UHGV virus genome: UHGV-0183840
From: a virus
Strand: one strand, 5' to 3'
DNA: 32,207 nucleotides
This document shows, piece by piece, positions 15,001-18,000 of the stretch. Positions within the stretch are counted from its first letter, which is position 1; each line of letters starts with the position of its first letter. Position numbers: made by a program.

Positions 15001-18000
15001 GCCGTTTATGACGGTCAGGCAGGCATTGATGCAGGCCTGGCTGATCAACTGATTAATGCTGCAGATGCCGTTGAAGTGATGGTTTCTGCACTGAATGACT
15101 CTGTTACGAAGGAGAATGCAATGACTGTTAAAAATCTCACCGTTGCTGAAGCGGTGGCCCAGGAAAATCAGCGCGTGATGGGGATCCTGAATTGTCAGGA
15201 GGCGAAAGGGCGCGAGCAACTGGCGCAAATGCTGGCAGGTCAACCTGGAATGACGGTTGAGCAGGCGAAAACGTTGCTGGCTGCTGCGCCGGTTGCCGGT
15301 ACTGACAGCACGGGTGATCAGATTATGGCGCTGCCGGAAGCAAAGGGGCGTGAACAACTGGCACAGATGCTGGCAGGTCAACCGGGGATGACGGTGGCGC
15401 AGGCGAAAGCGTTTCTGGCGGCAGCCCCTGCTGCCGGTGCTGCAGGCGCAGGCGATCAGATTATGGCGTTACCAGAAGCAAAAGGGCGTGAACAACTCGC
15501 GCAGGCGCTGGCTGAACAGCCGGGAATGACCGTTGACCAGGCCAAAACGTTACTGGCGGCGGCACCGGTTGCGGGTTCTGCAAGTGTCGGCGATCAGATT
15601 ATGGCGCTGCCGGAGGCGAAAGGGCGCGAACAACTTGCACAGGCACTGACAGAACAGCCAGGAATGACGGTGGCGCAGGCGAAAACGCTGCTGGCAGCCG
15701 CGCCGGCGGCATCGCAACCGTCACAGGAAACACTTTTTGATCGCTTTATGGCACAGCATGCTGCCAGTGCGGTTTCCGGTGGCGGAACTGCCGGGCGCGG
15801 GGAGGAAGACCTGCTGATGAGTATGCCGTAAGCGATATCCGGAATTCAGATAAATCAGGAGACTGAAAAATGATTAAAACCACCACGGAAAAGCGCGCGG
15901 ATGTGCACATTTTTGCCGGAAACGATCCGGCGCATACCGCAAAAGCCACCAGTGGTATCAGTGCCGCCATGCCTGCACTGACGCCACTGATGCTGGATGA
16001 TGCCACCGGTAAACTGGTGGCATGGGATGGTCAGAAAGCCGGAACGGCAGTGGGGGTGCTGGCTCTGGCGCTTACCGGAACAGAACCCACGCTGACGTAC
16101 TACAAAAGCGGTACGTTTGCCACTGAGTCGCTGGTCTGGCCTGACTCTGTGGATGCGGTGAAAAAAGCCAACGCATTTGTGGGAAGTGCCATCAGCCACG
16201 CCTGATGGTGAAGTGATTAACTGAAAAACGGGTCGCGATGCGGCCCGTTTGTGTTTCTGAAGGAAAATAAATTATGGGGTTATTTACCACGCGTCAGTTA
16301 CTCGGGTACACCGAGCAGAAAGTGAAGTTTCGTGCGCTGTTTCTGGAGCTGTTCTTTCGTCGCACGATCACTTTCCATACTCAGGAAGTCATGCTGGATA
16401 AAATTACCGGCAAAACACCGGTTGCGGCGTATGTGTCTCCGGTGGTGTCAGGCAAAGTGCTGCGCAGCCGTGGTGGTGAAACCCGTGTGTTACGTCCCGG
16501 TTATGTAAAACCAAAACACCGCTTTGATTATCAGCAGGCAGTGGAACGTCTTCCGGGAGAAGATCCGGCCCGCCTTAATGACCCGGCTTACCGCCGTCTG
16601 CGTATTCTGACGGACAACCTGAAACAGGAAGAGCAGGCGATTGTGCAGGTGGAAGAAATGCAGGCGGTCAGTGCCGTTCTGCAGGGTAAATACACCATGA
16701 GCGGCGAGCAGTTTGAGACGGTGGAAGTGGATTTTGGGCGTTCTGTCGCCAATAACATTACGCAGGCTGGCGGACGCGAATGGTCACAGCAGAATGCTGA
16801 CACCTTCGATCCGACGCATGATCTGGATGCGTACTGCGATTTCGCTTCCGGCACCATCAATATCGCGATTATGGACGGCACGGTCTGGCGTATGCTGAAC
16901 GGTTTTAAACTGTTCCGTGAAAAACTGGATACCCGCCGTGGCTCCAAATCTGAGCTGGAAACGGCACTGAAAGATCTGGGCTCCGTGGTTTCCTTTAAAG
17001 GCCATTACGGCGATCTGGCCATTGTGGTGGCGAAGACAACGTATGTTGACGAAAACGGGGATGAACAGCGTTATCTGCCGGAAGGTACACTGATTCTGGG
17101 GAACACTCAGGCGGAAGGCGTCCGTTGTTATGGTGCCATTCAGGATAATCAGGCACTGAGTGAAGGGATCACCTCTGCGATTCGTTATCCGAAACACTGG
17201 GAGGAAGTGGGGGATCCTGGTTGCGAATATACCATGACGCAATCTGCGCCGTTGATGGTGCTGCCGGATCCGGATGCGTTTGTGGTGGTTCAGGTGAAAT
17301 AAGGTCAGGCGGGATATTCCCGCCTTTTTCTTTAGCGCACGGGAGAGATGTGATGACAAAAGAGCAGATGACTGAACGTTTGCAGGAACTGGCAGTGATT
17401 CTGGGGCGTGAAGCAGATATTTCAGGTTCAAAAGCCGATCTTGAGCAGCGCCTGGCGGAATGGGAAGAGGAGGCCGCCGGATTCGATGGGGAGGAGACAG
17501 GGAAGGAAGATGTGGGCAACGATGCATCCGGCGACGGAATGCATTCTGAGCGGGGACTCGCCCGGGTGCGTATGCTGAAAACGGCGCATATGCCAGCCTG
17601 TGATGCTGTGACGGGAAAAATGTTGATGTTTGCCCGGGCCTCCAGTGTTGTGCTGGTTAATGAAGCCGCAGTTCCAGCGTTGCTGGCGGACGGTCTGGCA
17701 GAAAAAATCCGGGAGTGATGATGTTAGATAATCTGTTCGATCAGGCCATGAGCGATGCGGATGACATCATCCTGGATACGATGGGGACGGAAATCAGCAT
17801 ATATCCGGACGGCACGGAAAGAAGAATCCGTGCCGTTTTTGATGCCCCGGCAGAAAACACCGGGATGAACACTGGCAGCGGCGAAATTCGTGATACTGCG
17901 CCCGTGTTATTTACCCGGAGCGCATGGGCCGCCGGTCTGAAAAAATATGACAGGGTCATGATCCACGGCGAACCCTATCAGGTAGTCGATCCCGGCTGGG

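Follow-up and report, generated by a model that had tools for sequence, protein, structure and literature searches.

The repeat array and its predicted nested scaffold ORF

The virus genome UHGV-0183840, a stretch of 32,207 nucleotides (nt) that was analysed whole and is called the window here, contains a tandem repeat with a period of 138 base pairs (bp). It lies in the C-terminal part of a gene for a prohead protease/scaffold fusion of the type of phage lambda gpC, and encodes four in-frame copies of a module of 41 amino acids (aa). Judged by sequence comparison, the array is a four-copy member of a family already annotated in phage 21, and its unit is the conserved core of the lambda scaffold protein Nu3. 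The features of the locus are listed below, with open reading frame (ORF), scores against a hidden Markov model (HMM) of the unit, and, where given, the predicted local distance difference test (pLDDT) from AlphaFold2.

14215-15831 (+): gpC-like prohead protease/scaffold fusion ORF, 538 aa plus stop (Pfam, PHROG 53, SppA structures)
14650-15084 (+): S49 (SppA/ClpP-like) peptidase domain (Pfam coordinates)
15109-15114 (+): Shine-Dalgarno sequence AAGGAG, 6 nt upstream of an in-frame internal ATG (from sequence)
15121-15831 (+): predicted nested Nu3/gp6-type scaffolding ORF, 236 aa plus stop, co-linear with phage 21 gp6 (200 aa, an annotated coding sequence)
15169-15291 (+): module 1, aa 319-359, QRVMGILNCQEAKGREQLAQMLAGQPGMTVEQAKTLLAAAP; unit HMM 90.1 bits, pLDDT about 90
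15307-15429 (+): module 2, aa 365-405; unit HMM 91.7 bits
15445-15567 (+): module 3, aa 411-451; unit HMM 91.1 bits, pLDDT about 90
15583-15705 (+): module 4, aa 457-497; unit HMM 91.9 bits, pLDDT 92-94
15706-15828 (+): single-copy C-terminal tail (AASQPSQETLFDRFMAQH...EEDLLMSMP), aligned with the phage 21 gp6 and lambda Nu3 tails

Tandem Repeats Finder reports a single substantial array in the window, at 15198-15706 on the + strand (period 138, 3.7 copies, 79% matches, 1% indels, score 564), in frame within the 538-aa ORF. Units counted from their EAKGRE motif start at nt 15199, 15337, 15475 and 15613, which are aa 329, 375, 421 and 467. These in-frame 138-bp repeats, with the same unit sequences, had been described at 15199-15715 in a first-pass annotation, which counted three full copies and a partial fourth. 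The repeats stand; that count came from the register chosen. The unit HMM matches each copy at ~90 bits (E about 1e-30), which excludes chance, and read in the domain register the array consists of four complete modules of 41 aa with 5-aa linkers between them. QRVMGILNCQ before unit 1 is then the counterpart of GDQIMALP before units 2-4. Pairs of units are 72-80% identical in DNA and 80-87% identical in protein, with 11-18 synonymous and 5-9 non-synonymous codon differences per pair, and the longest exact run common to any two copies is 8-23 nt. An antisense ORF of 135 aa at 14974-15381 was without support and was judged to be a by-product of the GC-rich repeat.

All of the modules lie inside the nested ORF, which starts at aa 303 and is comprised of a 16-aa lead, the four modules and the 41-aa tail. 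A purine-rich Shine-Dalgarno sequence followed 5-8 nt later by an ATG is present at the aligned position in the window, in the diverged E. coli alleles RM11911, A34 and OkiPb01676, and in two phages, 21 and lambda (M309 in the latter). At this conserved signal the six genes encode different residues (KENAM, QENTM, EDKNM, REVNM, RGGTM, SGGRM). In phage 21 the aligned start is the annotated ribosome-binding site and start of gene 6, the Nu3 analogue, and a nested scaffold, gp6, is likewise annotated at the corresponding site in the records of N15 and phi80. The 41-aa tail can be aligned with the ends of phage 21 gp6 (…MFEHFMANH…KMLMAMP) and lambda Nu3 (…ALDRLMQG…DLLNTPV). The earlier placement of the repeats in the Nu3-equivalent part of the gene is borne out by their position wholly inside this ORF and by the alignment of its start with that of phage 21 gp6.

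The lambda record (J02459.1; L003, 833-1438 versus about 1043) annotates Nu3 as 201 aa from gpC residue 239. The lambda Shine-Dalgarno sequence and ATG that are homologous to the phage 21 gp6 and window starts are those of M309 (AGGAGGG, 4 nt, ATG), giving 131 aa. Metagenomic gene callers report ORFs of ~137 aa at the lambda M309-type position.

The unit HMM finds one match in lambda gpC (aa 359-399, E=4.5e-18) and three in phage 21 gp5/gp6 (E=2.2e-21, 1.6e-16 and 5.7e-15). The phage 21 matches coincide with the repeat regions named 'Tri1 box', 'Tri box' and 'Tri3 box' and described as 'function unknown; putative' in GenBank M81255.1, so the triplicated form has been on record since the phage 21 head-gene sequence. 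A search of the open-access literature found no description of the repeats, and the GenBank annotation was used instead. The reference for that sequence is reportedly Smith and Feiss, 1993. The Tri boxes, the correspondence of the unit to the one conserved core of lambda Nu3, and the internal start all go beyond the first-pass annotation.

Genes 5 and 6 of phage 21 are like the window locus in gene position, in encoding an S49 protease with a nested scaffold (start at aa 302, against aa 303 in the window), in the tandem repetition of the same module, and in having a homologous tail. Like the Tri boxes, the window units are in-frame tandem repeats of ~35-40 aa in the ORF of a Nu3 analogue, and they are homologous to Tri1-Tri3. 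Window module 1 is about 85% identical to Tri1 and is orthologous both to it and to the single unit of lambda. However, phage 21 has three units and the window four, the units of phage 21 have diverged far from one another in a position-specific manner, and the scaffold parts share only 56% protein identity. In lambda gpC/gpNu3, likewise, an internal start in an S49 protease gene gives the scaffold in the same reading frame, the gene lies between portal B and D/E, and there is one copy of the module and a related tail; in lambda the one module follows a polar lead of ~50 aa, whereas in the window the four modules follow a lead of 16 aa. The best matches in the phage collection, at 62% identity, are the gpC homologues of Gifsy-1 and of other Salmonella and Escherichia coli prophages (P0008, P0026, P0017). 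These are S49 protease/scaffold genes with three-module arrays, and they differ from the window in their linkers and tails as well.

The identity of the surrounding gene as a gpC-like protease gene, also proposed in the first-pass annotation, is upheld by an S49 domain lying between genes for a lambda-family portal and gpD/gpE homologues. Pfam Peptidase_S49 (PF01343) matches aa 146-290 (E=1.6e-33, 116 bits against a cut-off of 24.9). The 538-aa protein also matches PHROG 53, 'head maturation protease' (E=2e-217), and, in a PDB sequence search, SppA crystal structures (E about 1e-16). Ser162 in NDMACS (nt 14698-14700) aligns with Ser166 of lambda gpC (NDMNCS), and RefSeq names the protein of relatives 'S49 family peptidase'. 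The neighbouring head genes are:

12654-14225 (+): lambda-family portal gene (Pfam Phage_portal_2, PF05136, E=1.9e-95)
15870-16205 (+): gpD-like head decoration gene (Pfam HDPD, E=3.9e-23)
16274-17302 (+): gpE-type major capsid protein gene, 342 aa (Pfam Phage_cap_E, E=2.8e-65), whose product is a candidate binding partner of the modules

Nu1 and gpA terminase genes are found upstream and FI and FII downstream of the gpC-like gene, in the same order as in an annotated relative. The gene is located where C is found in the lambda-type head module (terminase, W, portal, C, D, E).

Copy number and selection among relatives

Do the four copies belong to the prophage, or were they generated by its assembly? 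The gene was compared by megablast with 5426 complete E. coli genomes, counting matches of at least 80% coverage. It is carried by 105 of these genomes, and the best 30 matches all span exactly 1617 bp; with the nested 711-bp ORF as the query, 106 genomes matched. Sixty rows of this second search, taken at identities between 99% and 82% along the ranking, each proved to be one co-linear alignment in which the length does not change by 138 bp. The gene matches a median of 2 places per genome, and up to 7. Having four copies is characteristic of a single lineage of E. coli prophages, which about 2% of the complete genomes carry.

Other arrays differ in number. Of the best 79 IMG/VR loci, most have three units (45) or four (29), and there is one with five; two complete loci carry two units, and in two others a count of two comes from an array that a contig end interrupts. 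Searching 1.84 billion representative proteins with the profile gave 361 that carry the unit, mostly in one copy and in a few cases in two or three, with no full four-copy protein among those listed. P0241, for which five stretches are listed, was rejected as a five-copy case since these are only short, low-score partial matches. Of 255 proteins that were retrieved and have one near-full unit or more, 175 have one, 43 two, 36 three and 1 four. The species-representative genomes have 25 loci with one unit, including those of alpha-proteobacteria, Vibrio, Shewanella, Leptospira, Desulfarculus and Bryobacter, and 4 loci with three units, in E. coli, Shigella flexneri, E. albertii and Providencia. 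The four-unit array is absent from the 50,697 phage records searched, in which Gifsy-1 and the phage-21-like phages have three units and lambda, N15, phi80 and HK225 have one. The presence of one copy across many phyla indicates that this is the ancestral state and that the multi-copy arrays are essentially an enterobacterial innovation, to which two-unit proteins in Bradyrhizobium are the exception.

A word-indexed homology search with the nested product was used only for counting units, and the full-length 538-aa cluster was not among its results. A large share of what it returned was 'S49 family peptidase, partial' fragments from short contigs. Such fragments fit contig breaks inside the gene in genomes that hold several lambdoid prophages whose head genes are alike.

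Tandem repeats are a classic source of mis-assembly, in which case the true copy number would be different, and two IMG/VR loci with DNA-identical internal units, described below, could be artefacts of this kind. For the window we regard this as practically discounted. Its copies are only 72-80% identical in DNA, the exact runs that they share are too short to have confused an assembler, and about 105 complete E. coli genomes, independent of each other, and 29 IMG/VR loci have the four-unit gene or nested ORF, in the genomes at the same length. The first-pass annotation was therefore right that the array is not an assembly duplication of identical sequence. Its further expectation, that the array is prone to recombinational expansion or contraction, fails for this allele: with shared runs of just 8-23 nt, homologous recombination between the copies should be inefficient, and all 60 sampled relatives keep four copies. 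Over longer time scales copy number does shift, as seen in the two-, three-, four- and possibly five-copy alleles, a chimeric unit and homogenised arrays.

Each of the copies has been maintained. The paralogous cores within the window have synonymous divergence (dS) of 0.71-1.76, near saturation, yet non-synonymous divergence (dN) of 0.04-0.11, giving dN/dS of 0.02-0.13. Between the window and OkiPb01676, orthologous modules are 92-99% identical in DNA and paralogous modules 75-85%. Module 2 of the window, for example, is 98% identical to module 2 of OkiPb01676 and 75-84% identical to its other modules, and modules 3 and 4 are 99% and 97% identical to their orthologues. Since orthologues are closer than paralogues, the four-copy state predates the split between the two, and since that split each copy has evolved separately under purifying selection. 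Constraint is concentrated in the modules: between the window and RM11911, dN/dS is 0.11 for the cores, 0.49 for the linkers and 0.54 for the tail. Three-unit arrays, too, have units whose sequences are specific to their position, and this holds across E. coli and Salmonella.

Some arrays carry marks of exchange between units. In A34 (L005, NZ_CP028741.1, 595-2235) the DNA of the units is 96-99% identical from one to another, exact matches between them run to 35-63 nt, and there are still four of them; the sequence indicates recent gene conversion and homogenisation, or re-amplification. Units 2 and 3 of RM11911 both resemble window unit 3, the apparent footprint of partial conversion. In the proteins P0050 and P0052 (phage-21-type S49 peptidase / nested ORF) there are two units, of which the first is a Tri1/Tri2 chimera (…GMSVEQARPILAASP). 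From its sequence, this chimera was left by an unequal crossover in register, with the loss of one unit. A further IMG/VR locus, L075, is a two-unit allele with diverged units. L031 (UViG_2547132418_000009) and L039 (UViG_2537561935_000008) have flanks that are 99.9% identical and a nested ORF from 2501. L031 has five units, of which units 2-4 are 100% DNA-identical, and L039 has two, lacking exactly those three. In the four-unit lineage, units 2-4 have a Tri3-like leader (DQIMAL) joined to a Tri1-like body, which suggests an amplification separate from that in phage 21. Taken on these sequence patterns, copy number changes rarely, by unequal crossover or gene conversion.

What the modules may do

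The AlphaFold2 model of the nested product, built from an alignment of 50 sequences, has a mean pLDDT of 78 and a predicted template modelling score (pTM) of 0.32. Modules 1, 3 and 4 reach a pLDDT of about 90 and the linkers 44-65. The predicted module has a short helix (…IMAL), a turn at EAKGRE, a helix (QLAQ.LA), a loop at QPGMT and a third helix (.QAKTLLAAA). The modules are predicted to fold independently, as beads on a string with flexible linkers and without a fixed arrangement between them. A Foldseek search of BFVD with the model found only other S49 prohead proteases, with weak E-values. Matches of the repeat region to T2SSK, DUF732, Bac_DNA_binding, Peptidase_C23 and PHROG 379 were set aside as noise, being below curated cut-offs or having zero accepted stretches.

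We think it probable that the array is made up of four in-frame copies of the core of a Nu3-type scaffold and acts as a multivalent module for binding the prohead core or capsid. The module is the only segment of the scaffold region that is conserved as far as alpha-proteobacteria, Leptospira and Desulfarculus. A lambda-family portal gene is present upstream in 26 of 29 loci, and a PF03864 capsid gene (~340 aa) is present downstream in all 10 distant loci tested by Pfam, with 11 more identified by phmmer. For lambda, curated literature and two-hybrid data report interactions of Nu3 with E, C, B and itself, and 'C may degrade Nu3' (PMC3224144). Each module would bind a conserved partner in the head module, most likely the gpE-type capsid protein, or alternatively the portal or other Nu3 or gpC molecules. 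With four modules, scaffold and protease alike would be tetravalent, which would give higher avidity and allow cross-linking of capsid subunits. Since the protease and the scaffold share the modules, both would be carried into the assembling prohead by the same contacts, and once the prohead is assembled the scaffold would be cleared by the protease, as it is in lambda. The extra modules possibly replace the long N-terminal lead and weak self-association of the one-module scaffolds; this fits the length of the lead, with a median of 56 aa where there is one unit and of 14 aa where there are two or more.

The P22 literature describes a small helix-turn-helix of the scaffold, at the C-terminus of gp8, as the coat-binding element. 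The likeness is a functional analogy only, in that both are small helical modules of a transient internal scaffold which bind, or in the window would bind, capsid protein. The P22 element has no sequence or Foldseek similarity to the window modules (no Foldseek PDB match at E<=0.001), is a single copy at the extreme C-terminus, belongs to a separate scaffold gene whose product is recycled rather than proteolysed, and works with another coat-protein family.

Several points weigh against the binding role proposed here. It is from sequence only that we infer that the internal start at 15121 yields a separate scaffold protein. The identity of the partner of the modules is argued from the co-occurrence of genes and from likeness to lambda and P22, and in other phages the extreme C-terminus of the scaffold contacts the coat, so the single-copy tail could be what binds. 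The pLDDT of module 2 is lower, at 65-76, probably because the three-unit homologues leave gaps there. Foldseek against the PDB found no solved homologue of the module, and the PDB sequence search found no match for the C-terminal part of the 538-aa protein. The contrast in lead length is drawn from a set of gene calls that is biased. Finally, L031 and L039 may be a real expansion/contraction pair or may be an assembler artefact at a perfect-repeat loop, both being draft genomes.

The most serious alternative is that the tail is the capsid binder and that the modules are units for self-association or for docking to the portal or protease, so that the repeats build the core or set protease loading. 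We regard this as possible, though less probable than capsid binding by the modules. The coat-binding elements of P22 and other phages are at the extreme C-terminus, Nu3-Nu3, Nu3-C and Nu3-B interactions are reported besides Nu3-E (PMC3224144), and a lambda-type portal accompanies the unit in those 26 of 29 loci. The tail itself has a conserved amphipathic helix and an LLMSMP/LLNTPV end common to phage 21 and lambda. However, the tail evolves with a dN/dS of 0.54, against 0.11 for the modules, and distant homologues keep the module and not the tail. Are the extra copies needed at all? Lambda works with one unit, and the Ala/Gln/Gly-rich composition of the array region would suit products of slippage or duplication in a disordered, low-complexity linker, tolerated and contributing nothing; lambda gpNu3 is reported to be partly disordered. 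Such neutral expansion is nonetheless very unlikely, given the low dN/dS of every copy at near-saturated dS, the individual retention of orthologous modules since before the strains diverged, and the position-specific units that three-copy arrays keep between E. coli and Salmonella. The modules are also predicted to be folded (pLDDT about 90), and only the linkers evolve fast.

It has been suggested, in the first-pass annotation, that repeat number could tune scaffold length. This is trivially true of the protein, as the nested product lengthens with the number of units from 131 aa in lambda to 200 in phage 21 and 236 in the window. The stronger form, in which the array is a molecular ruler whose unit number sets scaffold length and thus capsid size or T-number, can appeal to size-determination proteins that alter capsid size elsewhere, such as P4 Sid. 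There is no sign of such capsid tuning here, since the capsid proteins do not differ in size and the genomes all fall within 43-48 kb: lambda (one unit, 48.5 kb), phage 21 (three units, 42.9 kb) and the four-unit prophage contigs (about 47 kb) all have gpE-type capsid proteins of ~340 aa. The flexible linkers and the pTM of 0.32 also argue against rigidity. It is unlikely that the array sets capsid size, and we give a ruler slightly less credence even than neutral expansion. Lower still, and highly improbable, is that the modules are helix-turn-helix units that bind packaged or host DNA. The pattern LAxxLAxxPGMTVxQAKxLL does resemble a helix-turn-helix, and there are weak matches to Bac_DNA_binding (E=1.6e-3, below cut-off) and to PHROG 379, 'DNA binding protein' (E=3.9e-4, 0 stretches). 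All such matches are under curated thresholds, however, the nested product has a net charge of -7 with modules that are neutral to acidic, and the lambda homologue is a transient scaffold that is removed before packaging (PMC3224144).

Capsid or prohead-core binding by repeated Nu3-type cores is thus the reading that we prefer. A more speculative extension of it, which we hold only tentatively and as rather doubtful, is that the number of modules is a dial of valency under selection. Each module would bind one gpE-type subunit or a neighbouring scaffold, the four-module chain would take the place of oligomerisation, cross-linking up to four subunits, and the protease would be loaded by the same contacts. 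This would explain the strong purifying selection on every copy and the homogenised array of A34, which still has exactly four.

The wider prophage and the meaning of the array

Its gene content identifies the element as an E. coli prophage that combines a head of the lambda type with a P2-like contractile tail. The virion module, at 10047-31613, is a hybrid in which genes for a lambda-type head (Nu1, A, portal, C, D, E, FI, FII) are linked to those for the contractile tail. The other features of the window are:

7187-7645 and 7894-8460: lysis cassette, with a holin and a GH108 endolysin respectively
23713-25188 and 25185-25703: contractile tail, with sheath and tube respectively, plus baseplate and tail-fibre genes

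The left end of the window cuts a perfect 9-bp tandem repeat, TTGTATTGT, present 8.4 times and followed by a T-rich tract (1-76). Adjacent genes for tRNA-Thr(TGT), at 5861-5936, and tRNA-Gly(TCC), at 5940-6014, are found between a DNA methylase gene (4649-5695, PF01555) and a TerB-like ORF with the lysis cassette. In the closest annotated relative, E. coli STEC309 (L002, NZ_CP041435.1; 9535-10753, 14315-16230), a scabin-related ADP-ribosyltransferase and the B subunit of a subtilase-type AB5 toxin are encoded just upstream of the holin; the cargo of the window differs in the equivalent region. The large terminase gene of that relative is frameshifted, and the terminase ORF of the window is intact (638 aa, 10528-12444). 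The ORFs at 3155-4066 (on the - strand), 18043-18825, 18822-19388 and 26183-27835 had no Pfam match at E<=0.001. The last of these, of 550 aa, is a 'hypothetical protein' at the equivalent place in the relative, and its position suggests that the product is the tape-measure protein.

The importance of the array is modest, since it is an ordinary though well-conserved variation and not a new kind of system. The Tri boxes, annotated without a function in phage 21, are repeats of the sole Nu3-type scaffold segment that is conserved across phyla. To this the present comparison adds that each extra copy is selectively maintained, and that there is a natural series of one to four, and possibly five, modules on otherwise equivalent lambda-type head modules. 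This allelic series is a genetic handle on binding by the Nu3 core, on scaffold valency in procapsid assembly and on protease loading. If module number does act as a dial of valency, the control of procapsid nucleation and fidelity by scaffold valency, a long-standing question, would become directly testable. The series may also guide the engineering of lambda-type phage-like particles.

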